Positions 11,026-37,290 of a stretch of DNA of 64,000 nucleotides are shown here, in pieces. Position numbers and translations under genes: made by a program. Under the pieces are notes generated by a model, which worked only from the letters and a program-made list of their open reading frames with translations, made no database searches and was not told the origin of the DNA. Each line of letters starts with the position of its first letter. Positions within the stretch are counted from its first letter, which is position 1. This DNA is from a virus (Duplodnaviria; Caudoviricetes). Where the stretch lies: positions 11,276 to 75,275 of the IMG/VR virus record IMGVR_UViG_3300046518_000260; one strand, 5' to 3'.

Positions 11026-11300
11026 CAGTCTCGCTCCCATTTGCCACAGCGCTTGCAATAGCGCGTCGGTCCAGCCGCATCAAAACCTTGCTGCCAAAGG
11101 TGTTCACACTCCATCTTTGGGGCCGGATTAGCCGCAAGGAATTCGTCCACGGCGCGCATCAGCTCAACCGTCGCTTCCCTGTACAGCGTGACCGCCGCCG
11201 TTGCATCTGCCATGGAAATGACTTGGTCAATGGCGGTTGCGCACTTTGCCGCCTCAGTGCGCAAGTCTTCAATCGTCTTGGTCTTCGTCGCTTTCGTCAT
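11025..11300 (-). CDS. Hypothetical protein with C-terminal Zn-ribbon-like motif
   Basis: CEHLW...YCKRCGK. Confidence 0.6.
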   Translation of the reverse strand: MTKATKTKTIEDLRTEAAKCATAIDQVISMADATAAVTLYREATVELMRAVDEFLAANPAPKMECEHLWQQGFDAAGPTRYCKRCGKWERD

Positions 11301-21920: not shown

Positions 21921-22664
21921 TCAAGTTGAAACTTTATCGGCCACCAGCCCGGCAATCAGTTTCGCCTTGGCGGCTTTGAAGTCTTTTTCCCGTTCGCCGG
22001 AAACGACACCGTCAACCACACTCTGCGCTTCTGCGACAATGGCCCGGCATTCAAGCATGACGGAAACTTCAACTTCGCTGAGCACGAACTTGAAAACATT
22101 CTCCGGGATCGGCTCGTGGTAGTTGAACCTACCGCTGACTTCCCATGTCATTTCATAGTCGCCAGGATGCGCATAGGTAGTCGAAGATTTGGCAGGCTTC
22201 AACCGAGCAGGATCGTACTTTTTGACCGGCTCAGCGATAGCATCCCAATCTACCACTAGAGGTTCAGGTTCAGGGGCGAACGGAGCTCTGTTCCATTCTT
22301 CCAATGCATAGTCCAGCGCTTCGGCGAAGTCGCGGGCCTTCTTGATCGCTCTGGTGTAATTGTTGATCTTGAAATCAGAGTTCAAGTTGACCGTAGCGAT
22401 GATCGCTTTCCCGGTTAACGCCGCTCCAAGCTCGACGAGGGTGCCGCTATGTGCTTCACCCTGCTCGCGGAACAGAATGAAAATGTCACACTCGGCAGCT
22501 TCACTGATGCATGCTGCCCAAAGGTCGTCCCAATCGTGGGTGCTTCCGGGCTCAGCTTGATCGATCCAACTTGAAACGATCCTGAAACCGTCTGCACGCA
22601 GATCGCGCCAGCGCTGTGCCCATGTGGCCTTGCTCGCGATATAAATCTTTGGCCGCTTGTCCAT
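21921..22664 (-). CDS. Nucleoside 2-deoxyribosyltransferase-like N-terminal domain plus unknown C-terminal region
   Basis: KIYIAS...SSWID...ISEAAECDIFIL...SGTLVELGAA pattern. Confidence 0.65.
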   Translation of the reverse strand: MDKRPKIYIASKATWAQRWRDLRADGFRIVSSWIDQAEPGSTHDWDDLWAACISEAAECDIFILFREQGEAHSGTLVELGAALTGKAIIATVNLNSDFKINNYTRAIKKARDFAEALDYALEEWNRAPFAPEPEPLVVDWDAIAEPVKKYDPARLKPAKSSTTYAHPGDYEMTWEVSGRFNYHEPIPENVFKFVLSEVEVSVMLECRAIVAEAQSVVDGVVSGEREKDFKAAKAKLIAGLVADKVST

Positions 22665-22665
22665 T

Positions 22666-23406
22666 CTATTCTCCGATCGCAACGTTATGATATTTGTCGT
22701 CAATGTCGTTCAGCAGCACGGCGACGAACTCTTCCAGCCCAGAGCCAGGCACCAATTCCACAGCACGAACTTTCTTGTGCCATTTGGCTGTGATCATTGC
22801 CCGTGCTTCAAGAAGAGCCTCCAACTTGCCGTTGCGCTTGGCGTCTGTCTGTGTAGACTTGATGGCTGCCAACGCCACGCGGGCCTCAGGAGGCTCAAGC
22901 CCCAACTGGATGACATTAACAACGGAGATCGGCATGGTATCGCCGAATATTGCCGCTACATCTGCTAACGTCAGCGGTTGCTCAGCTGCCTTTGGTTCAA
23001 GCTCGTCACTTGATTGGGGCTTCGTCGACCATTTGTGATGCCACATGAACGCAAGGTAGATCGCAACGTCGCGCGGGTCGCCTTTGTCAATATGATGGAA
23101 CATGCCGCGCCTGCACGAATGCTCCCAATTATCTTCCTTCCACCCTTCTGGATGGTATCCGTACTTCTCTTGCGCCGCGAACGCCTTCTGCTTCAATGCT
23201 TCTGCGAATTCATCGATAAGTGTATCGATCGGCCAGTCTGGAACACCCTTGGGGAACTTGTCCAAGAACACCTTCCATTCAGGCCATTCTCGGTCGAGCA
23301 CATCCCATTCGCCATGGGTCCATGCGCTGAGGAAACTTTGCACTTCAGAACCGGTTACAAGGGCGAACTGAAGAGCGGCATGTATATTTTCGTAAGGGTG
23401 GCTCAC
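22666..23406 (-). CDS. Mosaic phage protein with all-alpha conserved domain
   Basis: FAEALKQKAFAAQEKYGY...HHIDKGDPRDVAIYLAFMWHH, a motif I recall from Ead/Ea22-like prophage proteins. Confidence 0.6.
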   Translation of the reverse strand: MSHPYENIHAALQFALVTGSEVQSFLSAWTHGEWDVLDREWPEWKVFLDKFPKGVPDWPIDTLIDEFAEALKQKAFAAQEKYGYHPEGWKEDNWEHSCRRGMFHHIDKGDPRDVAIYLAFMWHHKWSTKPQSSDELEPKAAEQPLTLADVAAIFGDTMPISVVNVIQLGLEPPEARVALAAIKSTQTDAKRNGKLEALLEARAMITAKWHKKVRAVELVPGSGLEEFVAVLLNDIDDKYHNVAIGE

Positions 23407-23894: not shown

Positions 23895-24187
23895 TAGAAT
23901 GTCTCCACGATGCCATATTGGTCGAGGCCAAGCGTTGCATCGACCAGCGGTTGCGGCAGGTTCTTGTTTTCCAACAAGTGTTTGCCTACGACAAGCGCCA
24001 TCTCTTCAATAGCCTCGACAGTCGCCGGGTAGCTGTCGAGCGCGTCAGCCCAAGTGATGACGTCTGCCGGGCCAACCGGTTCGCCTGTGACCGTGTCAGT
24101 CTCTTGCTCAACGACCGGATCGAATTCGTACAGGGCTTGCGCAAGGCGTTTATACCTTTCATTCATACCAGTTAAGTCTTGTGTCAT
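23894..24187 (-). CDS. Hypothetical protein
   Basis: Coupled ORF. Confidence 0.55.
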   Translation of the reverse strand: MTQDLTGMNERYKRLAQALYEFDPVVEQETDTVTGEPVGPADVITWADALDSYPATVEAIEEMALVVGKHLLENKNLPQPLVDATLGLDQYGIVETF

Positions 24188-24842
24188 AAGGCTTAATCTC
24201 CTCTACTTTGACCATGGTCTGCCAACGGTCTGTGCTGTCACCAAACAATGACATTTGACCGTCGTACTTTACATTCAGGACGCGCTTGCGGGTGAACCAT
24301 ATCACCGCCTGCAATTGGTTTGGGATCAATCCCAATTGGTTCGCCAGCCGCTTGGTCGTCGATGCGACTTCCTTGTATACGCGCGGGCTGACGATGTTTT
24401 CCTTCATGGTTCCATCGTTGCCGCGATAAGCGCCGACCATGTGCCCGTCAATAGTGACGAACTCCTTGTGGTCCGGAAACAAGATATTGTGATAGAATGC
24501 CCGTATCTTAGGCCCACGGGCCGTCAGAAGAAAGTCTTGCTGCTTTGTCACGTATGCATAGGCCCTGTCACGGCAGCCCTTGTAGGTGGCAACCGTAATG
24601 TCGTCAACTTGCGCGCCTCTGCGCACCCCTTCCAGCACACTGATAAGTGACCGGAGGTTCCCCAAGTAGTCACTATTGGGGCTGAGCGCGACGAACGCTG
24701 CCGTCACTTCCCGCACGTCATGACCGTAGACTTTGGCGATTGAATGCATCATCTGATGATACCGCCAATACGCCAACTTACCTTCGGTCAGGTCAGTGGT
24801 GTCCGCCTGCTCGAACATCCGTTTCAGGTTAGCGTGGCTCAC
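24159..24842 (-). CDS. DUF7178-like protein (putative HhH/glycosylase-like fold)
   Basis: AAFVALSP...N, GPKIRAFYHNI...VTIDGH, QLQAVIW motifs. Confidence 0.6.
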   Translation of the reverse strand: MSHANLKRMFEQADTTDLTEGKLAYWRYHQMMHSIAKVYGHDVREVTAAFVALSPNSDYLGNLRSLISVLEGVRRGAQVDDITVATYKGCRDRAYAYVTKQQDFLLTARGPKIRAFYHNILFPDHKEFVTIDGHMVGAYRGNDGTMKENIVSPRVYKEVASTTKRLANQLGLIPNQLQAVIWFTRKRVLNVKYDGQMSLFGDSTDRWQTMVKVEEIKPYDTRLNWYE

Positions 24843-25123
24843 CCGAGTAACAACTGTGCTTTTCGTTCATCAAGGTCAATGGCCCCAACAACGTCACCCG
24901 TGCACAGTCGGCCGAGTGCGTCCTGGAACAACTGCCCGGTCCAGCTGATATGCGCCAGCCGGGTTGCCGACTTCGTGGTTGCGCCGTCCATCATCAGCCG
25001 GACGAAGCCGCTGCCTGACTTTGCATACAAATATCCATTCCAAGTATACAGCTCGGTCTGGGAGTAAACTCCGTTCGTGACCAAGATAGCCGCTTCGCCT
25101 TCAACCTGCTTAAAGAAACTCAT
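24839..25123 (-). CDS. Hypothetical protein
   Basis: ATGA/GTGA coupling. Confidence 0.6.
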   Translation of the reverse strand: MSFFKQVEGEAAILVTNGVYSQTELYTWNGYLYAKSGSGFVRLMMDGATTKSATRLAHISWTGQLFQDALGRLCTGDVVGAIDLDERKAQLLLG

Positions 25124-25287
25124 TGTTTCGCCCTATGGTCCGTCTGGACATCAGTGTTAATAGTCTTGCCTCTTGGGTCTGTAAGGCATGTCGTCACCGT
25201 TGCCAAAATGAACAATAGGACAATGGCCGCTAGCCATTTCCAAATATTTACTTCGTGAGGATTGCGACGACGCCAAACGCCCATCAT
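25120..25287 (-). CDS. Small single-TM protein (55 aa)
   Basis: AGGAG RBS; MMGVWRRRNPHEVNIWKWLAAIVLLFILATVTTCL...; below the ORF-track cutoff. Confidence 0.5.
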   Translation of the reverse strand: MMGVWRRRNPHEVNIWKWLAAIVLLFILATVTTCLTDPRGKTINTDVQTDHRAKQ

Positions 25288-25370
25288 TAATCTCCTGTTA
25301 AAAGCCCTGTCGGCGAGTGCCGTACACCGACAGGGCTAGTCCTAGGCCGGGTTGAGTTGGAGAGACCGAC

Positions 25371-25703
25371 CTAAGCTTCTTCCTTCGTGCCGATGCGGAC
25401 GAAGGTGTTTATGGTTTCTGTTATCGTGCGCTTGTGCTTCTTGCAGTAATTACGCAATAGCACGGCGGCGTCAGGTTCCAACCGCAAATTGATCCGACCC
25501 GTGGTCATTTTGCCGCGCTTGATCCCCAACTCCCAAAGCTTGGAATAAATCGAGGCTGGCGTGCGACCGAGCGCCCGGCCAATTTCCTTGGCCGTATGGC
25601 CGCGCGCATCCATTGCACGGGCTTTGTCGATATCTTCCTGTATCCACAACCGGGCGCTCATCGGCGTCGGTCTTTTAACAATCTTCCTTGGCATAACATC
25701 CAT
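25371..25703 (-). CDS. GcrA-like HTH fused to RHH-like domain
   Basis: WIQEDIDKARAMDARGHTAKEIGRALGRTPASIYSKLWELGI follows the GcrA N-terminal pattern; RINLRLEPDAAVLLRNYC...ITETIN is RHH-like. Confidence 0.6.
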   Translation of the reverse strand: MDVMPRKIVKRPTPMSARLWIQEDIDKARAMDARGHTAKEIGRALGRTPASIYSKLWELGIKRGKMTTGRINLRLEPDAAVLLRNYCKKHKRTITETINTFVRIGTKEEA

Positions 25704-26005
25704 TATAGTAACCGCCTTGAAGCCGGGACATGGTTCACAGGTCCGTGGGCCTTCTCAATCATATGATGGAACACGCGCAAGACGCGATCTTTCGGCCATT
25801 CTTCATTGAGCAGATACCAAAGCTCGGCACCTTGCTGCATGTCAAAACCGATATATTCATAGATTGGACGCCACGTAGGCCATTTTTCAATGCCCATGTG
25901 CTGCATGATATGCCCGGCAATATCTGTTTCTAGTCTAAGGTTGTCGTACTCCGGGTCGTCTTCACAAAGACGGAGTACGGCGATCGCGTTTTCTTTGGGC
26001 GTCAT
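25703..26005 (-). CDS. Hypothetical protein
   Basis: AAGGAG RBS before ATG 26005. Confidence 0.6.
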   Translation of the reverse strand: MTPKENAIAVLRLCEDDPEYDNLRLETDIAGHIMQHMGIEKWPTWRPIYEYIGFDMQQGAELWYLLNEEWPKDRVLRVFHHMIEKAHGPVNHVPASRRLL

Positions 26006-26081
26006 TTGTGGCTCCTTGACCTTGACACTGTGGCACGTTTCGGCCATTAATGGCAAGGTATTTTATTAACTGACGAGCCTG

Positions 26082-26360
26082 CTAACCCAATGTTCCTGCG
26101 GGAAACATGAGCGGGTATCCAAAGTCGCTGTTGTCACTGAACAGGACCATACTCAGGTCAGTGTGCGGCCCGCTAAGGCCCGGCAACCTGCCGCCGTTGC
26201 TTGCCAGCAGCGCGTCAATAAACTGAACTTTGGAACCGACCGTGTAGATGCGGAACAATTCAGCGCTAATGAAGCATTTGCCTTCGGTATAGTATTTTCC
26301 GCTTTCACGGAAGTAGTATGCGGTCCACGGTTCGCCGACTTTTTGTAATGCGTCTGTCAT
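26082..26360 (-). CDS. Hypothetical protein
   Basis: YYFRESGKYYTEG motif; coupled. Confidence 0.6.
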   Translation of the reverse strand: MTDALQKVGEPWTAYYFRESGKYYTEGKCFISAELFRIYTVGSKVQFIDALLASNGGRLPGLSGPHTDLSMVLFSDNSDFGYPLMFPAGTLG

Positions 26361-26641
26361 TTTATGCCCAATACCCTTTGGAATTCGTCTTGTTTTTCGG
26401 AGGCTCCAAGATCATAAGCCGCCTCCAGGATGTGGAGAATGGACTGCAGATCGTAGTAGCCCTTCTCCGTGTTGGGGAACGTCGCCACGGTATACTCGCG
26501 GCGGCGCAATTCAAGCCTATCTGCTTTTGACTTCGGGGCGCGGTTCCATTCCTTCATGCACTGGACGGTTATCCCGGCGCATACTCTGAACACATCCCAA
26601 TCCGGAGAGTATCTATCTGGCAGAACGAATTCGTTCTTCAC
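26357..26641 (-). CDS. Hypothetical protein
   Basis: Coupled ORF. Confidence 0.6.
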   Translation of the reverse strand: MKNEFVLPDRYSPDWDVFRVCAGITVQCMKEWNRAPKSKADRLELRRREYTVATFPNTEKGYYDLQSILHILEAAYDLGASEKQDEFQRVLGIK

Positions 26642-27201
26642 TAGACTATGAACCTCGACTTCAACTCATACTTGATGCTGGTCTTATCGAACTTGATTGG
26701 GATCGCCTGTTGCAAGTTGATCTTCTTCATCATGGCGATAAGGTCGCAGCAAATGATGACGTCGGAAAGCTCGTCGGCCAAGTCCCCAACGGTTGCTCTA
26801 GAACCGGCAAGGCCCAGGATTTCCCGCTGCATCTTCTTGACGACGTTGCCGACTTCGCCAGCTTCGCCGATCATTTCAGCAAAGCGGAACATCATGTCGA
26901 TCTTGTGCGACGGGTCCCATTCCGCGTCGCGCAGAACATTGCTAGCGCGCAGGCGCTGCATAAAGTCAACCATATATGTATTCTCCTGTTTCGGTGGTAT
27001 GATTTCAAGTGCTCGCGGATGGCACGGTACGGCATGCTTTTCGCCATTGAACCGGACCTTGACGTAGTGGGTGTCGCTGCCGCGATGATGCTCCACCACA
27101 CCAATGTCACCAAAGCGCACGCCCGGTTCGCTCCATGTCACGAACATGCCAACATTGAACGTAATTTCATAATAGTCTTCAATGTACTGGTAGTCGCTCA
27201 C
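26641..27201 (-). CDS. MazG-like NTP pyrophosphohydrolase with SH3-like N-terminal domain
   Basis: GEAGEVGNVVKK...LADELSDVII (ExxE...ExxD). Confidence 0.8.
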   Translation of the reverse strand: MSDYQYIEDYYEITFNVGMFVTWSEPGVRFGDIGVVEHHRGSDTHYVKVRFNGEKHAVPCHPRALEIIPPKQENTYMVDFMQRLRASNVLRDAEWDPSHKIDMMFRFAEMIGEAGEVGNVVKKMQREILGLAGSRATVGDLADELSDVIICCDLIAMMKKINLQQAIPIKFDKTSIKYELKSRFIV

Positions 27202-27938
27202 AGCTTTATTCTCCGGCTTGGGGCGGCGGGCATTTCGTCACCCGGCTGGAAGTTCACGAGGCACGGTTCGATATAGACGATCTTGGTCTGCTCGTTCCCA
27301 GGACCGTAGTGCTGCCGTCGCGTATAACCGGCACGCAGATGCACGCGCATCTTGCCGCCGCTGACGTGCTTCGTCGCCTTGCCGTTACGGTCATAGACTG
27401 TTGCGATCCGTATGACCGTAACGGCAGGAATAAGGGAGCGGCCCTTGCGCTCGCGCTGCTTGTTCAGGGCGTCGCAGGTAATGTGCGTCTTTTCAATGCC
27501 CTTGGTGTTCAGGAACAAAAGCGCCATGGTCGCCGCTGCTATGATCGCGTGCCCGTGCTGCATCTGCTCCGGGCCATTGCAGACCATGCCGTCCTTTTCG
27601 ATATACAGGTCGGCTTGCGGACAAGCATAGACCGTGCGGTCGGTTGGTAGGTGCAGGAATATCGCGGTGCACTTTATGCACTCGCCCTTGTCGATCATCA
27701 GGATGAACCAGCGGAACTGTTCGGTCGCCGAGAATTCCATGACCATTGGGGAATATGGCAACTTCATGATGCCTGCCTCGACCAAGGCTTGCACAGACTT
27801 GAACGCATCCTCGCGCTGGATGATCTGAACAACGTCATTCTCGACCAGATATTTCGCGGAGTTTTGGTAGAGTTCTCTCACTTCATGATTGATGCCAGCC
27901 CAAGTGATCCGGTGTTGTGCCGTGTAAACCCGATCCAT
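27198..27938 (-). CDS. Conserved phage protein of unknown function
   Basis: C-terminal HLRAGYTRRQHYGPG...KIVYIEP motif. Confidence 0.7.
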   Translation of the reverse strand: MDRVYTAQHRITWAGINHEVRELYQNSAKYLVENDVVQIIQREDAFKSVQALVEAGIMKLPYSPMVMEFSATEQFRWFILMIDKGECIKCTAIFLHLPTDRTVYACPQADLYIEKDGMVCNGPEQMQHGHAIIAAATMALLFLNTKGIEKTHITCDALNKQRERKGRSLIPAVTVIRIATVYDRNGKATKHVSGGKMRVHLRAGYTRRQHYGPGNEQTKIVYIEPCLVNFQPGDEMPAAPSRRIKL

Positions 27939-28085
27939 TTACTTGCCTCGCACGAGTGAGACGACCATGGCAACGGCGAAGCATGCACCGTAGGCGGCAG
28001 CATAGGCAAATGATGTTCCCATAATCAGCACACCAAACCAGACGGCAAAACTTTGGAACGCGAAGTCCAGAAATTGCATCAGCAT
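27939..28085 (-). CDS. 48-aa hydrophobic membrane protein
   Basis: TAATG coupling; almost entirely hydrophobic; below the ORF-track cutoff. Confidence 0.5.
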   Translation of the reverse strand: MLMQFLDFAFQSFAVWFGVLIMGTSFAYAAAYGACFAVAMVVSLVRGK

Positions 28086-28375
28086 TAAAGCAGGCTCCCG
28101 ACGGGCGACTGACCGTTTAGGAAACGATCCCAGCCGCTGAATGTATTGACAATGCCGAGCTGTGCGGCAGTGATGACGAAATGCGGAGCCTCAATATCGC
28201 ACCGCTCGACCCCGTAAAGTTCAATGTGTGCGAAGAAACGGCGCATATAATTTTCTTCTAATGCACCAGCCTGTGTCAGTTCCCATTGGGGTTTTACTGA
28301 CAGAATGTTTTCCCACGCTGAAATATATGCGACCTGCATTTTTTGTACTTGCTGTTTGTTCTTGATTGTAGACAC
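28085..28375 (-). CDS. Hypothetical protein
   Basis: First gene of the leftward unit. Confidence 0.55.
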   Translation of the reverse strand: MSTIKNKQQVQKMQVAYISAWENILSVKPQWELTQAGALEENYMRRFFAHIELYGVERCDIEAPHFVITAAQLGIVNTFSGWDRFLNGQSPVGSLL

Positions 28376-28584
28376 GACTTGCTCTCCGCTCTATGTTGGC
28401 TAACTTGGCATGTGGCAAAATAAAAGGCAAGCTATTTTATACACAAGAAAACATAGCAATTACAACGGTCTACAAAAATAAAAGTTTTTGAGGTTGCATG
28501 GCAATTAAAACCTATTAAAAGTGGTAAACGAGCCAAAATGTGAACGGATAGCTCGTTTACAAGCGCTCTTGGAGCAATAATCAA

Positions 28585-29418
28585 ATGACAAAAGCGATTG
28601 CAAAAGCTGAGACCCCAAAGGTTCCGGCGACGGGGTTTGCTGCCGGGCGTTTCGACACTGGCAAAACGGGCCTCGAGAATGTTACGTCGAAGGATCTGTT
28701 GATCCCTCGCCTAACGATCCTCCAAGCACTGAGCCCACAGTGCGTTGAAGGTAAGCCTGAGTATCGTGAAGAGCTGCGGCCCGGCATGATCTACGACACG
28801 GGCCTGAGCGAGCACTTCAACAAGGAACTTGGCTTTGTTCCTGTCCACTTCGACAAGCAGTGGATTGAATGGGCTCCGCGCGAAACTGGCAAGGGCCTTA
28901 TCAACATTTACGACAATGATGATATTATGGCGCAGACCGAAGAAGACATCAACGGTCGTGATGCGCTGCCCAACGGCAACTACATCGTCGAGACAGCCCA
29001 AATCTACGGCCTCAATCTCAACGCCAAGTTGCGCCCGAGTTTCATCGCCCTCACAGGCATGCAGCTCAAGAAGGCCCGCCGCTGGCTGACGCTGGCAACC
29101 TCTGAAGAGATCGAACGGCCGGACGGAACTGTGTTCCAGGCACCGTTCTACTATCGGAGCTACAAGCTGACCACGACGCCCGAAAGCAATGCCAAGGGCA
29201 ATTGGGTCGGTTGGGTCATCGACCGCGCCCGGTCCATTCCCGAGTTTGCCGAGAAGGACGAAGCCGCTGCTGAACGTTTGTTCACCAAGGCTATTTCGTT
29301 CAAGGAAAGCATCGATGCCGGTCTTGCCAAGGCCGACACTTCGACGCTCGACGATGGTGCGGGTGCTTCTGCAGGCGGCAAGCGCGGCGGCAGCAAAGAC
29401 ACAGGGCAGGAAATGTAA
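28585..29418 (+). CDS. Putative single-stranded DNA-binding / recombination protein
   Basis: GLENVTSKDLLIPRLTILQALSP signature; acidic flexible tail; heads the replication operon. Confidence 0.55.
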   Translation: MTKAIAKAETPKVPATGFAAGRFDTGKTGLENVTSKDLLIPRLTILQALSPQCVEGKPEYREELRPGMIYDTGLSEHFNKELGFVPVHFDKQWIEWAPRETGKGLINIYDNDDIMAQTEEDINGRDALPNGNYIVETAQIYGLNLNAKLRPSFIALTGMQLKKARRWLTLATSEEIERPDGTVFQAPFYYRSYKLTTTPESNAKGNWVGWVIDRARSIPEFAEKDEAAAERLFTKAISFKESIDAGLAKADTSTLDDGAGASAGGKRGGSKDTGQEM

Positions 29419-30056
29419 TGGAGCTACTCGACAGAATAGCGCAACAAGTGGAGGCAGCTACGGCTGCCTCCGGCAACACCGAAAAGATCGTTAAGCTTGT
29501 CGAAGAAGCCAGCGATCTGCAGGACGAGATCGAAGGCATGATGGAGATGCTGAAGACCCGCATTGGGCGCTTCAATCGCATCAAGCAATACGAGCTTGTT
29601 GAAGCAATGAAACTCGCCAACACTGGCGAGTACAAGACCCTCGACAGAAAGATCAAGGTAAAACTTGATAATTATGTCAGCGGTTCGCTCCCCAAGGAGG
29701 AACACGACCGTGAATTTGCACTTGGGGAACTGATCAGGGTCGGCGGACAACGGTTGATCAAGACCGGTATTTCGGTCGACTTCCCGAAGTCGATGCACAA
29801 TGCCGCCAGTGTGGTGTTCGGCAAGCTTGCCGATCTGTGCAAGGAAATCGCGGTTGACGGCGAAGACGTCGAGCCTACCATGACCGAAGGCGTCCATGCC
29901 GCCAGCCTTCAGGCGTTTGCCAAGGAACTGATCAAGACTGGCAGCGACGTCAAGCTTGACGTGCTTGGGCTTTCTTCTGGACAGGTTGCCAAGTTCGAGT
30001 TTTACGACGAGAACGGCAAGAAGAAAAAGAAGTTGAGCCTTGAAGATGTTAAATAG
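29418..30056 (+). CDS. Conserved phage replication-region protein
   Basis: Coiled coil plus VHAASLQAF motif; follows the SSB-like gene. Confidence 0.6.
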   Translation: MELLDRIAQQVEAATAASGNTEKIVKLVEEASDLQDEIEGMMEMLKTRIGRFNRIKQYELVEAMKLANTGEYKTLDRKIKVKLDNYVSGSLPKEEHDREFALGELIRVGGQRLIKTGISVDFPKSMHNAASVVFGKLADLCKEIAVDGEDVEPTMTEGVHAASLQAFAKELIKTGSDVKLDVLGLSSGQVAKFEFYDENGKKKKKLSLEDVK

Positions 30057-30684
30057 CGAACACGTAGTAAAGCGGGACATGCAGAACTTGCTCGAAGTTA
30101 TCGCGCAAGCCAGCAATGTTCAGCGGTACTCGCGTGACTTTATGGTCCATCGGGAACACCTGCTTGACCATATCGGCTTCATGTGCGTGTTCTGCTACTT
30201 CGTGGCCGGGCGTCTCAGCGAACAGGGTTATACCGTTCGTTTGGGGCGCCTGCTCAGCCGGGCGGTTGCCCATGACCTTGAAGAAGTAATCACGGGCGAC
30301 GTACCGCGCCCAACGAAACATTCGTCGCCGGAAGTTACGGCGGCGCTGAAAGTCCATGAAGTTGTTGCCGTCAACAGATTGATTGCTATCCTTCGTGTGG
30401 ACTTTGCTCAGGATTGGGCAGAAGCCAAGGCGGACGACCTCGAAGGCGATATCATCAAGCTTGGTGACATGGCGGCGGTCGTCTATAAGACCATGAGTGA
30501 AGTTGCCATGTTGGGCAACAAGTCTTTCATCCGCGTCTCGGACGAGATCACGGTGGAGATGGACAAGCTTGTGTTGAAAATGAAAGACCATCCCCTTGAA
30601 TGGATCGTGTTAGAGCTTAGCGATCTATTGGCCCGCTCGCGGTCCGGGGACATCAGATTTGGAGCTTTCTTCAAAGGACTATAA
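30046..30684 (+). CDS. HD-domain nucleotide phosphohydrolase (YfbR/DatZ-like)
   Basis: VQRY...EH...AHDLEEVITGDVPRPTK...KLGD. Confidence 0.85.
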   Translation: MLNSEHVVKRDMQNLLEVIAQASNVQRYSRDFMVHREHLLDHIGFMCVFCYFVAGRLSEQGYTVRLGRLLSRAVAHDLEEVITGDVPRPTKHSSPEVTAALKVHEVVAVNRLIAILRVDFAQDWAEAKADDLEGDIIKLGDMAAVVYKTMSEVAMLGNKSFIRVSDEITVEMDKLVLKMKDHPLEWIVLELSDLLARSRSGDIRFGAFFKGL

Positions 30685-30688
30685 GGCA

Positions 30689-31828
30689 ATGATAACAGGA
30701 GCAGGCATCGACATTCATGTCGATCGTATGCCTAACGGCGTGAATGTCGCTAAAGCATGGGGCACGTCACGCCCCAACGACAAGACGAGCAAGCTTGTTG
30801 ATGTGTTGAAAGTCGACACACCCGTCAACGAAATTGAGGATTTCATCCTCACCGTCAAATGCCCGATCATCTTCCGCGAAATGTTGTTCAGCCTGAGAGA
30901 CCATGTCGCTTGGGCGCGCACCAGTCGCGTTGACGACCTTAACCGTTGGGAAGTGTACTATCAGTATGCTGACCATCCCGGCGTCAAGGAATGCTACAAA
31001 TCCATGATGTCGGCGCAAGTGCGCAACGAAGCCCAGGACAACTTCCGCGAATGGTTGCCGATGGTTTACCTGACTTCGTTCACCCTCAAGCTTTCGGCCC
31101 GGACCCTGATCAGGTTTACCCAAGGCATCAACGAACTGCGCAAGAGTATCAGCCTTGAGCGCAGCCCCAAGCTTTGGGATATGGTCAACGACTTCTACAA
31201 AGAACTGCGTTGGGCCATCAACCAAAGCATCTATCAGGACTTGCCGATCGAAACATACGGGGCGGAAAACATCTTCCCTATGTGCGACAATATTGATGTT
31301 GCCAACGTCTCAGTGATGCAGGAATTCGTCTACTGCTACGTTACCGACGTTCCTGTCAGTCTGCGGGCGCAGTTGGTGCGTCATCGGCCGGTCATGATCC
31401 GTGATACTATGCGGAACTTCCTGACTGAAGATGGCGTGACCATGCCTATCCGTTCGCCTGTTGATGTTGCCATGGTCATGTCACTTGAGACGGCGCAGAA
31501 CATGGTCAAGAAGCGCAACTGCTGGATCGCTCAGGAGGACTTGTGGTCCCCAATCGTCAAGCAGCTGAACAAGGCCCTCGGGCCGAGCGACGGTTTTATC
31601 CTGCCTTGCACCAACAAGACGGAATGCCCGGTCGCGCAGGACAATCAGTTGCGCTATGACGGCAAGGACCCGGCACCGCCTTGCCCTATATGGTGCGGCA
31701 TGGGTGCCAAGCCCGTGACGTTTAATCAACGTACCGATGTGTTGCGGTATATTGAAAAGCGCACCAATAGCACCAAGTTCTGGCAGGGTCAGGTCCAGTC
31801 ACAACTCGCAGAAGAAGAAGGAGCGTAG
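30689..31828 (+). CDS. Tandem ThyX-like (flavin-dependent thymidylate synthase fold) protein with degenerate motifs
   Basis: First half FREMLFSLRDHVAWARTSR, second half SLRAQLVRHRP; neither has a complete RHRx7SxR. Confidence 0.6.
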   Translation: MITGAGIDIHVDRMPNGVNVAKAWGTSRPNDKTSKLVDVLKVDTPVNEIEDFILTVKCPIIFREMLFSLRDHVAWARTSRVDDLNRWEVYYQYADHPGVKECYKSMMSAQVRNEAQDNFREWLPMVYLTSFTLKLSARTLIRFTQGINELRKSISLERSPKLWDMVNDFYKELRWAINQSIYQDLPIETYGAENIFPMCDNIDVANVSVMQEFVYCYVTDVPVSLRAQLVRHRPVMIRDTMRNFLTEDGVTMPIRSPVDVAMVMSLETAQNMVKKRNCWIAQEDLWSPIVKQLNKALGPSDGFILPCTNKTECPVAQDNQLRYDGKDPAPPCPIWCGMGAKPVTFNQRTDVLRYIEKRTNSTKFWQGQVQSQLAEEEGA

Positions 31829-31832
31829 GCCC

Positions 31833-32354
31833 ATGAGCCGATTTAAGTATGACGTGTATCTGGCAGGCCCGTTCTTCAACGACAAGCAGAAGGCCACCAT
31901 GCACGCAGCCAAGGAAATGCTGCAAAGCCATGGCCTGATCGTCTGCGACCCGCAGGACCTTAGCCCGGTGCTCGTCGACCTGCCGCCGGAAGAGCGGAAG
32001 AAGCATGTGAAGGATATCTTCACCAACAACATCGATGCAATGAACAGGAGCTTTGCCCTGCTCGCCTGCATCGATGACCGTGATACCGGCACTAGCTTTG
32101 AGCTTGGGTACTGCTTCGCCTCGTTCAAGGAGAAAGGTCCGATACTGACCTTCAGTTCGCAAGGTTTTGGGGCGAACGTCATGTTGTCTGAGGCGACAAA
32201 TGCGCATTTTGAAACGCTTGGCGATCTTGATGTCGGCCTACGCATTATCGGTAATTATCTGGTATGGTCTAGCGGTGCTCGTTCATCATATTTTTACAGC
32301 CAACTCTTCGCTGGTTATAAGACTATTGGCAGCAAGGCAGTTGCGGTAGAATGA
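31833..32354 (+). CDS. Nucleoside 2-deoxyribosyltransferase / dNMP N-glycosidase family
   Basis: VYLAGPFF...DIFTNNIDAM...DDRDTGTSFELGY. Confidence 0.85.
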   Translation: MSRFKYDVYLAGPFFNDKQKATMHAAKEMLQSHGLIVCDPQDLSPVLVDLPPEERKKHVKDIFTNNIDAMNRSFALLACIDDRDTGTSFELGYCFASFKEKGPILTFSSQGFGANVMLSEATNAHFETLGDLDVGLRIIGNYLVWSSGARSSYFYSQLFAGYKTIGSKAVAVE

Positions 32355-32803
32355 CAGTTGTCCTGCTAGTCGACCTTGAGGGTGTTCTGTTCAACAACGC
32401 CCAAAGGCTCCATCTGTTCAAAGCTGCACAGTGGGCCGAGTACGAAACTTCATTCCCGGACGACACAGTTTATCCGGTAATGAGCCAGTTCCTTTCTTCC
32501 GTGTATTGGTCAACCTTCGAGCTTGTCATTGTTACCGGTCGGTATCAGAAATACTATGACCAGACAGTGGAGCAAATGCGCAAGGTGAACATCCACCCGG
32601 AACATCTGTTGATGCGGGATAACTTCGACATCCCCAAGACGAAGGAGCCGGAACTCAAGCTGCAACTGCTTGACGAGATCAAACGCCTTTACCCGGAACC
32701 GGGCACGATGTTCATTGCACTTGAAGATCGTGACGATGTGGTCGAGGCATATCGCAACGCTGGCATTGAATGCTGGCAGGTCAGAAATGGAAGTATCGGA
32801 TGA
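32351..32803 (+). CDS. HAD-family phosphatase (T4 PNKP 3'-phosphatase-like), with DLEG instead of DxDG
   Basis: LVDLEGVL, IVTGR, LLMR, EDRDDVVEAYRNAGIECWQV. Confidence 0.8.
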   Translation: MTVVLLVDLEGVLFNNAQRLHLFKAAQWAEYETSFPDDTVYPVMSQFLSSVYWSTFELVIVTGRYQKYYDQTVEQMRKVNIHPEHLLMRDNFDIPKTKEPELKLQLLDEIKRLYPEPGTMFIALEDRDDVVEAYRNAGIECWQVRNGSIG

Positions 32804-33378
32804 AAGAATTACCAGAAGTGAAGCAAGTTCGGCCATACGTTGCGGCCGAACTTGAAAAGAAGGCCAAGATTTACGAGGAACGCAACAAGCTTTATGGCGA
32901 CAACTACAAGCGCCATGGACTTGTCATGCAGGCATTGTTCCCTTATGGCCTTGCCGTCACCAACGTCGAGAACCATAACCGGCTCGGAGTGTTCACGCAG
33001 ATGGTTGCCAAGCTGACCCGCTACGCTGAAAACTTCCAGCGCGGCGGTCATGACGACAGCCTTGACGACCTGACGGTATATACCATGATGCTCAAGGAAC
33101 TGGACATGGAGGCTGCCAGCATGGCGGAATACCATGGCTACGAGGAAGCTGCCCAAGCTGCGACCAATGAGCCGGAGGTCCAGGCGCGTGAAGCCGATAG
33201 CTTTCTCGGCCGATACCCGGACCCAACCGCCGCAGACGCATTCGTCTATGGACGGACAGTTGTACGACCCGGCGCTGGAGAAGATAGCGAACAGGTTGCG
33301 CCAGAACCTCCGGCTCTAGACCAGCTTGAGCATAACTCAGACGCGCCGCCTGCCGTCCTGGAAGTCCCGCAAAAATGA
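32800..33378 (+). CDS. DUF6378/DUF1599-like all-alpha NTP-pyrophosphatase-like protein
   Basis: ERNKLYGDNY...VAKLTRY...HDDSLDDLTVY; low-complexity acidic tail. Confidence 0.6.
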   Translation: MKELPEVKQVRPYVAAELEKKAKIYEERNKLYGDNYKRHGLVMQALFPYGLAVTNVENHNRLGVFTQMVAKLTRYAENFQRGGHDDSLDDLTVYTMMLKELDMEAASMAEYHGYEEAAQAATNEPEVQAREADSFLGRYPDPTAADAFVYGRTVVRPGAGEDSEQVAPEPPALDQLEHNSDAPPAVLEVPQK

Positions 33379-33911
33379 GGGACTTGGTATTCGATACCGA
33401 GACGACCGATCTTATTGATAACATCGGTCGTCCCCTTTCCAAGCAGCCATATGTGATTGAATTTTTCGGCATCACTGTGGAGCGGGAAGCTCGCGAAGTC
33501 ACCGAAGAAACTTTGTCTTTGTTGATCAAGCCGCCGTTCGTTATTACCGAAACCACGACCCAGATCACCGGCATCACTGCGCCGATGCTCGTCAATGCCC
33601 CAACCTTCTCGTTTGTGGCAAAGCAAATCAAAGATTACGTCGAAAGCCATGATCGTATCGTTGCCCATAATGCCGGGTACGATAAAGACATGCTTGAGAT
33701 TGAATTCAAACGGCTAGGTGTGGAGATAAACCTGCCGGAAGTGATTTGCACCATTGAAGGTACGGAACACCTGAAAGGCTACCGCCTCAACCTTGGGGCG
33801 TTGCACACTGAATTGTTCGGCGCAGACTTCGCTGACCACCATAGAGCCGAGCCGGATACGCGGGCAACTGCCCGCTGTTATGTTGAACTCTTGAACAGGG
33901 GAATTCTATGA
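33375..33911 (+). CDS. DEDDh 3'-5' exonuclease (Pol III epsilon-like)
   Basis: FDTETT, VAHNAGYD, HRAEPD. Confidence 0.9.
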   Translation: MRDLVFDTETTDLIDNIGRPLSKQPYVIEFFGITVEREAREVTEETLSLLIKPPFVITETTTQITGITAPMLVNAPTFSFVAKQIKDYVESHDRIVAHNAGYDKDMLEIEFKRLGVEINLPEVICTIEGTEHLKGYRLNLGALHTELFGADFADHHRAEPDTRATARCYVELLNRGIL

Positions 33912-34315
33912 AGAAGCCACGCACCGGACCCAATCAGCATATGCAGTCGCTGCAAGCGATTGTCAAGATGTTTGAGGAAGGCAAGGCTAAACAGTTCGCA
34001 ATCGTCTGTGATGCACATGTCATGGGCGAGCTAGTTGACCGTGGCGGCGCTGCCGTACAGGCGCTAGGCTACCCGGTTTTGTATAGCCGTCACATGGCCT
34101 CGATAAGCGGCGGCACCAACGATAATAAGAAAGGCTTGGGGCTTGAGATCAATTACCTCGCCCTGAACCACGATACTATCGACCGGTTGCGCGGTCGGCC
34201 TCTGTACGTTTTCAATATTGCCGAAATGGGTGTGCACACTTTGTCATTGGACAACCTGCGCCACCTCGACGACCTGATTGCCGAAATGAACTCCAGGATG
34301 GAACTACCCCAATGA
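33908..34315 (+). CDS. Hypothetical protein
   Basis: Coupled ORF between the exonuclease and polymerase. Confidence 0.6.
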   Translation: MKKPRTGPNQHMQSLQAIVKMFEEGKAKQFAIVCDAHVMGELVDRGGAAVQALGYPVLYSRHMASISGGTNDNKKGLGLEINYLALNHDTIDRLRGRPLYVFNIAEMGVHTLSLDNLRHLDDLIAEMNSRMELPQ

Positions 34316-37290
34316 AAGTCATGACCGGATATTCCTACGGCCACTCTGCAGGCCACATCGAAGAAGTCATGGACCGCATTGTTGCATGCGGATATCCGGC
34401 TGCGCCTATCTCTGACTTTTGTTCAACTTTTGGGTTCGTCCAGTGGCGGAAGCTCGCCAAGAAGAAGAACCTCAAACCTATATATGGGGTTACTATCAAT
34501 GTCACCAATGGCCCGCAAGACAAGCGCCCGGCGACGTGTGAATTTACGTTCTACGCCAAAGACAACATCCTCGCAATCCACGACCTTATTGAGCTTGCCA
34601 CAAATCAATTTCGCTATACGCCCCTTCTCACCTATGAGCAAGTTGCACGGGCGAAGGGTGTTATCAAAATCATTGGTCATCGAGCAAGACTTGAGCTCGT
34701 GGAGCCCGATGAAGATACATATGTCGGTGTCACACCTGCGGTCTATCCCGGCTATTTTAAGCAAGCCGAAGAGCTCGGGTTCCAGTTCATTGCGTCCAGC
34801 GAAAACCGCTATACTGGCAAAAATGACCGCATCCTATACGAAACTCTTATGGGTCGCAATAAACAGACGCAGAGCTATCCACAATATATACTCGATCCGG
34901 AAGAATGGCGGGTGGCCGTTGCAAAATGTCAAGCTTCGGACGCACGGCTTGATGAAGCACGAGAGAATTTTCTACGAGCGATGGAGAAGTGCAATGCTCT
35001 CCTGCCACAAGGTACACTCCTTACACCTGTCAAGGATAAGACACTCCGACAACTGTGTGTGGCGGGTGCCGAACGCCTACGGTGCAACCTCGACGATCCG
35101 GTTTATTCGGCGCGCCTTGACCGTGAGCTGACCCTTATTGACGACAAGGGTTTTGAGGACTACTTCTACATCGTGTCTGAAATGATTGCATGGTCCAAGG
35201 AGCGCATGCTGGTAGGGCCGGGCCGTGGTTCCAGCTCAGGCAGTCTGGTATGCTACCTCCTTGGGATCACGATGATTGACCCAATACCATACGGATTGCT
35301 GTTCGAGCGTTTCATCGACATCAACCGCATGGACTTGCCTGACATCGACATCGACTTTAGCGAACAACGCCGTTCCTTGGTGTTCGAACACATGGCAGAT
35401 CTGTACGGCAAGGACCGTACCGCGCGCCTTGGCACCGTGTCGTTGTACAAGCCGAAATCGGTTATTGAAGCGGCGGCGCAGAACCTTGGCGTGCCGTTCT
35501 GGCTGACCAATCCCGTGCGCGACAGTATGATTGAAACATCATCAGGTGACGCGCGTGCACTAAAGGCCATCGAAGACACGTTCGAGAAGACGCCTGCCGG
35601 GCAAAAGCTGATGCAGGCGCATCCTGAAATGGCAATCGCCATGCGGATGGAAGGCCACCCTAACAACAAATCACAGCATGCGGCAGGCGTCATCGTTACC
35701 GCGCGTCCGGTCAAGGAATATGTGGCCGTTGACAGCATCACGGGCGGCACCTACTGCAACAAGAAGGATGCCGAAGAGCTCAACCTTCTTAAGATCGATG
35801 CTTTGGGGCTGACCCAATTGTCCGTCTTTGAGGACGCGCTTGACCTGATAGGCAAAGGCAGCGCTTGGCTTGATGCTATACCGACGGAGGACCAGGATGC
35901 ATTTCGCGTACTTAACGAGCAGAAGTTCTCAGGAGTATTTCAGTTTGAAGGTGCAGCGCTGCAACGAGTTTCGAAAGAGGTCAATATTACGTGCCTCGAC
36001 GATATCATCTCACTTACAGCGCTCGCCCGCCCGGGACCTTTGTCGTCGGGAAGCACGGCGCACTGGATCAAACGCAAGGCAGGCAAGGAAGAAGTCCGCA
36101 TCCCTCATCCCGTATTCGAGCCGTACCTCCTTGATACGTTTGGGGTCGTTGTTTATCAAGAACAAATCATGTCTATCGTGCGCGAAGTCGGGGGACTTTC
36201 TTGGGAGGACACCTCAAATCTACGTAAAGCAATGTCAAAATCTCTTGGACGTGAATTTTTTGACGGCTTTGGAAATCCATTTAAGGAGGAGTGCGTCAAG
36301 AAGGGAGTTCCGTTTGATATCGCCTTCGACGTCTGGGATAGTCTCTGCGCATTTGGGGCTTGGTGTTTCAACAAATCTCATGCGGTGGCGTATGGCCTTA
36401 TCAGCTATCAATGCGCTTATCTCAAAGCACACTATCCGCTTGAATTTGCAGCTGCCACACTGACACATAAGGGCTCTGACGCCGATGGAATTGCCAAGCA
36501 GCTAAAGCAACTCCGAGAAATGCGCGATGAAGGTGTCAGCTATATTGCCGCACACGAAGAGCTCTCCACCGACAAGTGGCGCGTCGGCGTGGTTGACGGT
36601 GAGAAGTTGCTAATTGGACCCGTTCAAAACGTTAAGGGAATTGGCCCAAAGCTAGTTCAGGAGATCATGACGGCGCGCGCAATGAGCTTGCCTTTACCGG
36701 CGCGTGCAGCTAAGCTGTTAAGCTCACCTAAGACGAAAGTTGACACCCTTGCCCCAATCGCTGACGCCTTTAGACGGGTTATGCCTGACCCGCGTGAGCG
36801 GAACATTCTCAACCCACCGACACCTCTCAATGAGATACAGGTCACGGGGCAAGAATACGACGTCTTGGTATTTGTCATTATGGCAAAGATCAACCCTAAA
36901 GACGAAAACGAAGACATCAACGTTGCAAAACGTGGTGGCAAGCGGCTCAGCGGGCCGCACCTTTCCTTGGGGCTGCATCTGGCTGATGATACTGACAATA
37001 TCTATGCCAAGGTGGGACGTTACGACTACGAGGATATAGCTAAACCTATCATTGATCGCGGGCGAGCAAGCAAGGCATTATACGCGATCAAGGGGACGGT
37101 GCCTAAAGACTTCAGAATGATTAATATCAAACTGGTTCGGTATATTGGCGATATCGATCCAAAGTTTGAAACGGCACAACAGGAGCAGACCGTTGAGAGC
37201 GGGACCGATACTGGAACGACTACTGGTAGTTACGGGAGCTATGTGCGGGGCGACATCCTTAGCTCTGGAAGTCAAGCGCCCAATCCCTAA
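34312..37290 (+). CDS. dnaE: DNA polymerase III alpha subunit (C-family, with PHP domain)
   Basis: GPGRGSSSGSLVCYLLGIT, PDIDIDF, HAAGVIV, LLKIDALGL, FNKSHAVAYG. Confidence 0.95.
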   Translation: MKVMTGYSYGHSAGHIEEVMDRIVACGYPAAPISDFCSTFGFVQWRKLAKKKNLKPIYGVTINVTNGPQDKRPATCEFTFYAKDNILAIHDLIELATNQFRYTPLLTYEQVARAKGVIKIIGHRARLELVEPDEDTYVGVTPAVYPGYFKQAEELGFQFIASSENRYTGKNDRILYETLMGRNKQTQSYPQYILDPEEWRVAVAKCQASDARLDEARENFLRAMEKCNALLPQGTLLTPVKDKTLRQLCVAGAERLRCNLDDPVYSARLDRELTLIDDKGFEDYFYIVSEMIAWSKERMLVGPGRGSSSGSLVCYLLGITMIDPIPYGLLFERFIDINRMDLPDIDIDFSEQRRSLVFEHMADLYGKDRTARLGTVSLYKPKSVIEAAAQNLGVPFWLTNPVRDSMIETSSGDARALKAIEDTFEKTPAGQKLMQAHPEMAIAMRMEGHPNNKSQHAAGVIVTARPVKEYVAVDSITGGTYCNKKDAEELNLLKIDALGLTQLSVFEDALDLIGKGSAWLDAIPTEDQDAFRVLNEQKFSGVFQFEGAALQRVSKEVNITCLDDIISLTALARPGPLSSGSTAHWIKRKAGKEEVRIPHPVFEPYLLDTFGVVVYQEQIMSIVREVGGLSWEDTSNLRKAMSKSLGREFFDGFGNPFKEECVKKGVPFDIAFDVWDSLCAFGAWCFNKSHAVAYGLISYQCAYLKAHYPLEFAAATLTHKGSDADGIAKQLKQLREMRDEGVSYIAAHEELSTDKWRVGVVDGEKLLIGPVQNVKGIGPKLVQEIMTARAMSLPLPARAAKLLSSPKTKVDTLAPIADAFRRVMPDPRERNILNPPTPLNEIQVTGQEYDVLVFVIMAKINPKDENEDINVAKRGGKRLSGPHLSLGLHLADDTDNIYAKVGRYDYEDIAKPIIDRGRASKALYAIKGTVPKDFRMINIKLVRYIGDIDPKFETAQQEQTVESGTDTGTTTGSYGSYVRGDILSSGSQAPNP

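Follow-up and report, generated by a model that had tools for sequence, protein, structure and literature searches.

Thymidine hypermodification has been demonstrated experimentally in the phages SP-15, YerA41 and Carin-5, in which the modified base is dihydroxypentyluracil, carries a substituent of ~1 kDa, or bears a linker-phosphate-oligosaccharide, respectively (PMC5977210, PMC9023294, PMC12686479); for YerA41, a later paper describes the majority of dT bases as glycosylated (PMC13697223). How the carbon-linked hypermodification of the SP-15 type arises has been a question since the 1970s, and the literature that we located assigns neither its enzymes nor the reaction of the SP-15 gp130 family, although Kropinski et al. 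proposed gp130 as a hydroxymethyl-dUMP (deoxyuridine monophosphate) synthase, at a time when by their account it had no homologues. A different route is used by SPO1, phiW-14, ViI and M6, which employ a ThyA-type dUMP hydroxymethylase and hydrolases of dTTP and dUTP, and then 5-HMUDK and aGPT-Pplase acting on DNA (PMC5889632, PMC8989533). In phages with Z genomes, DmtZ, a member of the nucleoside 2-deoxyribosyltransferase (NDT) family, both removes a canonical nucleotide and builds the non-canonical one, by hydrolysing dAMP and transferring deoxyribose-5-phosphate to 2-aminoadenine (PMC12884076). Here we analyse a tandem ThyX-like gene and its neighbours in a stretch of 64,000 nucleotides (henceforth the window; positions 11,276 to 75,275 of the IMG/VR record IMGVR_UViG_3300046518_000260, Duplodnaviria; Caudoviricetes), which covers most of a complete phage genome (75,275 bp, direct terminal repeats, 100% complete).

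We find that the ThyX-like protein belongs to the family of SP-15 gp130, YerA41 gp081 and Carin-5 gp49, and that the functional core of the locus consists of three genes, encoding an HD phosphohydrolase, the ThyX-like protein and an NDT. An original prediction, made from the letters of the window, had proposed a module of five genes, adding a HAD phosphatase and a DUF6378/DUF1599-like protein (here P7), in which a degenerate ThyX-like enzyme makes a modified pyrimidine, four hydrolases deplete its competitors and the phage DnaE incorporates the product. All five open reading frames (ORFs) are indeed present and translationally coupled on the + strand of one operon, the junctions of which are either overlaps of 4-11 nt or gaps of 5 nt; only the NDT start had to be moved, from 31737 to an ATG at 31833 behind a GAAGGAG site. 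Four of the proposed identities stood, namely HD, the ThyX-like fold, NDT and a HAD/PNKP-type domain, whereas P7 has no Pfam match and lost its assignment.

Family and fold of the ThyX-like protein

Among 50,697 phage records, a tblastn search with the ThyX-like protein found ten records only, all of them large myoviruses: YerA41, GN1, phiXF1, three Vibrio phages, SP-15 (two records), Carin-5 and GXN1. The matches covered 80-90% of the query, with 31% identity and E 3e-39 for YerA41 and E 8e-12 for SP-15, and a profile search, which recovered YerA41 at 2e-82, added the Listeria phage LIS04 to the carriers. Foldseek aligned the protein over its full length with a model of SP-15 gp130 (TM 0.72/0.67), and W24, S27, R28, D43, R63, R70, W75, R80, Q116, D117, R138, Q228, R231, R276, W286, D318 and R322 are invariant in common with the SP-15, YerA41 and Carin-5 homologues. 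After clustering at 50% identity the family comprises 581 representatives. In a tree built by a quick method and marked by long branches, a long supported branch separates the ThyX-like protein, YerA41 gp081 and phiXF1 from SP-15, Carin-5, GXN1 and a Vibrio protein. The phiXF1 paper does not mention DNA modification. In LIS04, the family member corresponds to an open frame of 385 amino acids (record ~116373-117074) that matches the tandem profile, and an unannotated HD ORF (97563-98075) lies between the helicase and primase genes of that record.

By profile score, the relationship to ThyX lies below threshold: the protein reaches 18 bits (E 0.0026) against Pfam Thy1 PF02511, with a cut-off of 24.8, and 17.5 bits against TIGR02170, with a cut-off of 87.9. 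The ThyX fold is nevertheless clear in both halves of an AlphaFold (AF2) model computed from an alignment of 32 sequences (pLDDT 92). The N-terminal half (residues 3-192) matched ThyX 6j61 with a Z-score of 12.7 (176 residues aligned, root-mean-square deviation 3.7), and more than 40 ThyX and PolB structures scored between 11.4 and 12.7. When the C-terminal half was modelled alone (pLDDT 90.5) and compared with 48,161 chains by a search run without Foldseek, the top five hits were all ThyX or PolB (Z 7.0-5.6; next 4.3), and a Foldseek search gave a concordant result. An hhalign comparison of the two halves with each other detected no sequence similarity (probability 0.2); the tandem architecture is thus concluded from structure together with the Thy1 profile, the RHR region of which also matches the C-terminal half.

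Is such a divergent protein still an enzyme? We mapped its residues to the numbering of Thermotoga maritima ThyX (Tm-ThyX) by hand and with partial hidden Markov model alignments. The contiguous signature RHRxxSxxxxSxR is not found within either domain. Instead, the N-terminal half, which reads S-L-R-D-H-V-A-W-A-R-T-S-R at the corresponding place (equivalents of R80, S88 and R90), retains R80, S88, R90, R147 and R165, and the C-terminal half, which reads R-H-R-P-V-M-I-R-D-T-M-R-N (R78, H79, R80 and an Asp at E86), retains Q75, R78, H79, R80, E86 (as Asp) and R174. The mapped residues are invariant or nearly so across the 32 sequences (28-49% identity), as are many residues specific to the family. 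Because each placed ThyX position is kept once, divided between the halves, this pattern represents complementary retention rather than decay, and the description of the enzyme as degenerate does not hold. It would be the pattern expected of a fused pseudo-dimer that keeps one of two active-site types, and judged by these residues the enzyme appears active yet specialised.

The C-terminal extension contains four cysteines directly after the arginine equivalent to R174 (C278, C307, C313 and C332; 31520-31687 in the window). The clade of DnaE phages has them without exception, and phiXF1 and Carin-5 keep them, yet the homologues from YerA41, SP-15, Vibrio phages and GXN1 lack them. For this reason, a structural metal site restricted to part of the family is more likely than the iron-sulphur or catalytic site that we also considered. 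Fusions in longer family members were not informative, since P0130 contains only a DUF559 endonuclease (as is found upstream of YerA41 gp081) and P0087 nothing recognisable.

Three linked genes

To define the neighbourhood we surveyed 72 loci (69 from IMG/VR and three other contigs) and classified neighbouring genes by phmmer. An NDT gene is present in 71 of the 72, directly adjacent to the ThyX-like gene (at most 100 nt) in 63, and an HD gene is present in 65; where at least 1.5 kb of flank was available on both sides, each partner occurs in 49 of 50 loci. Linkage persists through rearrangement: the order is ThyX-like-NDT-HD in 38 loci, HD-ThyX-like-NDT in 24 and ThyX-like-HD-NDT in three, and the trio occupies two positions, either before or after DnaE. 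The genes also recur together in unrelated myoviruses of 113-222 kb, as HD-ThyX-like-NDT in Vibrio phage 150E35-1, NDT-HD-ThyX-like in GXN1, ThyX-like-NDT in phiXF1 and NDT-reductase-ThyX-like in SP-15, while in YerA41 an NDT gene lies 2.3 kb downstream of the ThyX-like gene. That YerA41 gene, YerA41_086 (L001, 9389-9925), has been given the name of a mannosyltransferase; as it can be aligned with the NDTs linked to ThyX-like genes and has YLASPLF and D-A-G-T-x-x-E-x-G motifs, it is probably a misannotated NDT. In the phage records, all three core genes match nearly the same handful of genomes. A similar-looking cluster exists in Geobacillus phage GR1 (record positions 23909-29720), with genes for an NDT, a thioredoxin, an HD protein, a glycosyltransferase, a P-loop NTPase, RNase HI, a nitroreductase/dihydropteridine reductase and an FAD-dependent thymidylate synthase; the annotated ThyX of this cluster is not detected by the tandem-family profile A1.

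The NDT scores well above its Pfam cut-off (Table 1), has the catalytic Glu (in DTGTSFELGY) and finds a true transferase, NDT 6evs, as its best match in the PDB (2e-9). Among 77 homologues linked to ThyX-like genes, the motifs YxAGPFF, D-x-G-T-x-x-E-x-G and N-x-M are conserved in 75-77, and the catalytic Glu and the Asp six residues upstream of it in 76 each. The enzyme thus has the classical signature of a nucleoside transferase. The upstream Asp and the Phe that ends the first motif are features that, going by NDT and DNPH1 structures, we take to indicate nucleoside rather than nucleotide substrates. Seven of the eight phage records matched by the NDT are ThyX-like carriers.

The HD protein likewise exceeds its Pfam cut-off and is closest in the PDB to YfbR (2paq, 5e-8), with DatZ a weaker match (1e-3). 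Its H..HD..D ligands and an E-x-x-T-G-D-x-P-x-P-x-K motif are invariant in 67-68 of 68 relatives, and it scores 47 bits against the NCBIfam YfbR equivalog NF003009, the cut-off of which is 122. Its sequence therefore suggests a member of the YfbR family that is not an orthologue, and an activity as a DatZ-type deoxynucleoside triphosphatase (dNTPase) is possible. About three quarters of the 24 phage records that it matches either carry the ThyX-like gene or belong to the SP15-like polymerase group that PMC12686479 names.

The other two genes of the predicted module behave differently, and the expected co-occurrence of five genes reduces to that of the trio. The HAD domain, which matches PDB structures of T4 PNK phosphatase domains, is an accessory found in only 10 of the 72 loci. 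Its motif I, for which DxDx(T/V) would be usual, reads DLEGV here, SLEG in the closest relatives (loci L004 and L012) and DxDGT in distant ones, and this degeneration makes phosphatase activity doubtful. In the closest subclade, the nucleophile Asp has become Ser and the Asp two residues on has become Glu, with the remaining domain well conserved, and it may now serve for binding instead. P7 has no match to DUF6378 or DUF1599 even at E 10 and is at best weakly DUF6378-like, through a structural lead in the Atlas to small proteins of phages, among them carriers of DUF6378 or DUF1599 (a cluster at TM 0.90 by row, 24% of whose members have DUF6378). It lies upstream of and near the exonuclease gene in all loci showing both, even where the trio has moved behind DnaE, and thus belongs to the exonuclease/DnaE replisome unit. 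Four hydrolases that deplete competitors can therefore not be upheld, the NDT having a transferase signature, the HAD domain a decayed nucleophile motif and P7 other company.

A candidate thymidine-replacement cassette

How might the trio act? The comparative signal favours a thymidine-replacement cassette, and with it the part of the original prediction that has the ThyX-like enzyme synthesise a modified pyrimidine: its family comes from phages with hypermodified thymidine, and in SP-15 it coexists with a canonical ThyX and in Carin-5 with a canonical ThyA (231 bits), whereas in YerA41 the tandem protein is alone. We envision a single-chain pseudo-dimer, presumably pairing as a ThyX-like pseudo-tetramer, whose flavin chemistry would attach a carbon substituent to dUMP at C5 without simply reducing it to methyl, giving 5-hydroxymethyl-dUMP or an adduct of greater size. 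After phosphorylation to the triphosphate by host kinases, this product would be built into DNA by the phage DnaE, replacing dTTP in part or entirely. Conceivably, HD (turning deoxynucleoside mono- or triphosphates, dNMPs or dNTPs, into deoxynucleosides) and NDT (swapping the base) divert deoxyribose away from canonical nucleotides, such as thymidine, to deoxyuridine, which would supply the ThyX-like enzyme while shrinking the dTTP pool. DmtZ provides a precedent for an NDT-family enzyme at work in the base replacement of a phage (PMC12884076). That the trio is a pre-replicative module which makes a 5-substituted dUMP and is expressed with the phage replisome is the reading that we prefer, yet it seems to us evenly balanced between true and false. 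Slightly more tentative is the specific proposal that the ThyX-like protein represents a flavin-dependent C5-transferase of dUMP, not described before, with a product other than dTMP, perhaps 5-hydroxymethyl-dUMP or else a trapped exocyclic-methylene adduct from which the pentyl-type side chains of SP-15, YerA41 and Carin-5 would be built, that it forms a portable thymidine-replacement cassette with obligatory NDT and HD, and that a large uncultured clade of 40-80-kb DnaE phages, spanning hundreds of protein clusters at 50% identity, has a non-canonical thymine in its DNA. We count an adaptation of the phage DnaE to a modified nucleotide as not supported.

The serious, and main, rival is salvage for dTMP supply, which we consider a real possibility, if a somewhat doubtful one. 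In this scenario, HD turns dNMPs from degraded host DNA into deoxynucleosides, NDT rebalances the pool or makes deoxyuridine or thymidine, host kinases re-phosphorylate, the ThyX-like protein is a divergent but ordinary synthase, and the DNA stays canonical. A Roseobacter-phage NDT and thymidylate synthase have been read in a comparable way, as conversion of the C pool to T (PMC11981692). The classical nucleoside type of the NDT signature fits such a role, and the ThyX-like protein would be the only route to extra dTMP: in the complete genome, searched with one Pfam model per function, we found no ribonucleotide reductase (RNR), ThyA, second Thy1, dUTPase or dCMP deaminase, and likewise no member of the adenylosuccinate-synthetase/PurZ family (PF00709), TGT/DpdA or GT2. 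Within that scope, the predicted absence of RNR, ThyA, PurZ and 7-deazaguanine genes holds. Salvage offers no ready account of three other findings. If the tandem protein produced only dTMP, it would be redundant in SP-15 and Carin-5; it is very distant from ThyX by either profile and has many strict family-specific residues; and its type, like that of the NDT, is not found in the thousands of phages with ordinary salvage genes among the phage records, being almost confined to the group with hypermodified thymidine and a few untested large phages.

A number of points must be set against a thymidine-replacement cassette, several of which equally speak for salvage. Retention of each mapped canonical ThyX residue once is also what an ordinary synthase would display. 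The three phages with experimental evidence share one polymerase-defined group and are thus not independent cases. The 75-kb genome yielded no recognisable dNMP kinase, dUTPase, dCTP/dCMP deaminase or glycosyltransferase of the GT2 type, and Pfam and PHROG scans of ~30 larger ORFs of the early region and operon, many of which have no family match, revealed no modification enzyme. A short-chain reductase, which accompanies the family in SP-15, Carin-5 and 20 of the 72 loci, is absent from the genome as well; we rejected this gene as a pathway marker, because its best phage matches (71 records) are mostly DnaE myoviruses without a ThyX-like gene and it is hence not specific to the family. Furthermore, several T-containing palindromes of the restriction type are strongly avoided (TGGCCA 0 versus 20.8 expected, AGGCCT 1 versus 19.8, CGTACG 4 versus 15.8), for which a fully protected T would give no reason. 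Avoidance extends to GCCGGC (2 versus 42), CCGCGG (1 versus 26), GGCGCC (6 versus 35) and GGGCCC (1 versus 15), and to GGCC in the whole genome (z -7.3); the mean ratio of observed to expected counts is 0.39 for GC-only 6-mer palindromes and 0.81 for those containing A/T, a difference that protected T predicts and GC-rich hosts likewise. The genome and dozens of relatives were assembled, and readily so, from ordinary metagenomes, which argues against a bulky modification of the YerA41 grade. Finally, the thymidine-replacement reading builds on what is directly seen, that is the folds, the conserved catalytic residues, the gene linkage and common family membership with enzymes of thymidine-hypermodified phages, and from these we infer substrate, product, direction of flux and a modified base in virion DNA for a clade of DnaE phages that is uncultured.

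It is very improbable that the trio instead makes a free modified base or nucleoside, in the manner of MilA/MilB (a pyrimidine C5-hydroxymethylase with an NDT-family glycosidase that frees the base), or remodels the pool for reasons unrelated to DNA composition, such as depletion of host nucleotides as counter-defence: the NDT keeps the Asp at the position binding the 5'-OH, the Phe of YxAGPFF and the N-x-M of nucleoside transferases, it lacks what we take to be the Ser/Arg phosphate-binding pattern of DNPH1-type nucleotide hydrolases, nearly all loci have the module next to the polymerase inside the replication operon, and no signalling-nucleotide enzyme is present. The idea draws on the make-up of the NDT family, to which DNPH1 and MilB belong as hydrolases and DmtZ as a dual enzyme (PMC12884076), and on the adjacency of the ThyX-like and NDT genes, often with overlapping codons, which points to one enzyme supplying the substrate of the other.

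The locus and its relatives show the candidate enzyme for carbon-linked hypermodification as part of a compact set of three genes, which extends far past the few giant phages in culture to small uncultured ones that form a common group. With three genes and no recognised sugar-adding layer, the set offers a minimal clonable system for testing this chemistry. It also marks out viruses from metagenomes with DNA that may prove refractory to restriction enzymes, to some polymerases and to standard sequencing chemistry. Should the ThyX-like protein turn out to be an ordinary thymidylate synthase, this would correct the working assumption for SP-15, YerA41 and Carin-5.

Operon context and relation to described systems

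The trio is embedded in a rightward operon on the + strand (28585 to ~42254), which contains all five ORFs of the original prediction and continues beyond the features of Table 1, downstream of DnaE, with a DUF5906 primase-helicase and an SNF2 helicase. Megablast of the region against the phage records gave zero matches, and the identity of DnaE to that of any isolated phage is at most 37%. The first two genes, encoding the Pam3_gp34-like and DUF7307 proteins, are syntenic in relatives, paired in all of them, and resemble a recombination or loader ATPase pair more than a single-stranded DNA-binding protein. Conservation of the 135-residue protein P9 is confined to the closest relatives. Two ORFs in the leftward early operon (- strand) are weak leads: a second, very weakly NDT-like one (21921-22703; Pfam E 0.0075, under the cut-off) and a MazG-like one (26641-27201; PHROG 229 E 7.6e-4, Pfam MazG E 0.089). 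The latter is unrelated to the pyrophosphatases that adjoin the ThyX-like gene in Vibrio phage 150E35-1 or Carin-5.

Table 1. Genes of the replication operon from its first gene to DnaE, in order (window coordinates).
Feature	Position	Strand	Basis	Start and junctions
Pam3_gp34-like P-loop protein	28585-29418	+	Pfam PF23977; Walker A GRFDTGKT at residue 21	
DUF7307 protein	29418-30056	+	Pfam PF23984	
HD phosphohydrolase, YfbR-like (5'-deoxynucleotidase or dNTPase type); core trio	30046-30684	+	PF12917, 73 bits (cut-off 25.9)	ATG 30046; 11-nt overlap with stop of preceding gene
Tandem ThyX-like protein, 379 aa, presumed C5-modifying enzyme; core trio	30689-31828	+	Fold and homology to SP-15 gp130/YerA41 gp081 family	ATG 30689; 5 nt past HD stop
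NDT-family enzyme, 173 aa; core trio	31833-32354	+	PF05014, 62 bits (cut-off 28.8)	ATG 31833; 5 nt past ThyX-like stop; ribosome-binding site GAAGGAG precedes
HAD-superfamily domain, T4 PNK 3'-phosphatase type; accessory	32351-32803	+	PF25109 (PNKP/T4 PNK phosphatase), 48.6 bits	ATGA-type 4-nt overlap with NDT
P7, small all-alpha protein with acidic disordered tail, 192-202 aa	32800-33378	+	PHROG 4889, C-terminal part, 1.4e-13	ATGA-type 4-nt overlap with HAD
DnaQ-like 3'-5' exonuclease, RNase_T family	33375-33911	+	PF00929, 65 bits; PHROG 192 'DNA polymerase exonuclease subunit'	ATGA-type 4-nt overlap with P7
P9, 135 aa, between exonuclease and DnaE	33908-34315	+	No Pfam or PHROG match	ATGA-type 4-nt overlap with exonuclease
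DnaE-type DNA polymerase III alpha subunit	34312-37290	+	PF07733, PF17657, PF02811	ATGA-type 4-nt overlap with P9

How does the locus relate to the systems described so far? With canonical ThyX (T. maritima TM0449) and the UMP/dUMP methylase PolB, the ThyX-like protein shares the fold in both halves, the RHR motif and equivalents of R90, R147, R165 and R174. Canonical ThyX is, however, a homotetramer of one domain, whereas here two unequal domains reside in each chain, the signature is split between them and an extension of ~100 residues with four conserved Cys follows at the C terminus. The route of SPO1, phiW-14, ViI and M6 resembles the one envisioned here in that a relative of thymidylate synthase would make a C5-modified dUMP before replication, alongside enzymes acting on canonical nucleotides. 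The synthase of those phages has the ThyA fold rather than the ThyX fold, and in our genome neither a ThyA-family gene nor a post-replicative kinase or pyrophosphorylase was recognised. DmtZ resembles the nucleotide-acting DNPH1/MilB branch and thereby differs from the NDT described here, which keeps nucleoside-type residues and is not accompanied by a gene of the PurZ family; common to both is an NDT-family enzyme encoded beside the synthase for a new nucleotide (a presumed one in our case) and nucleotide hydrolases.

The closest relatives remain SP-15 gp130, YerA41 gp081 and Carin-5 gp49. Their hosts of the gene are myoviruses of 113-222 kb, most of them with SP15-type PolA-UDG polymerases, with sugar-modifying genes and often with a second thymidylate synthase, whereas the genome studied here is that of a 75-kb DnaE phage with none of these, and the SP-15 and YerA41 proteins are without the four-cysteine site that ours shares with phiXF1 and Carin-5. 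Across these differences, the proteins are homologous over their full length, have the same tandem ThyX architecture and are encoded with NDT and HD genes adjacent or nearby.

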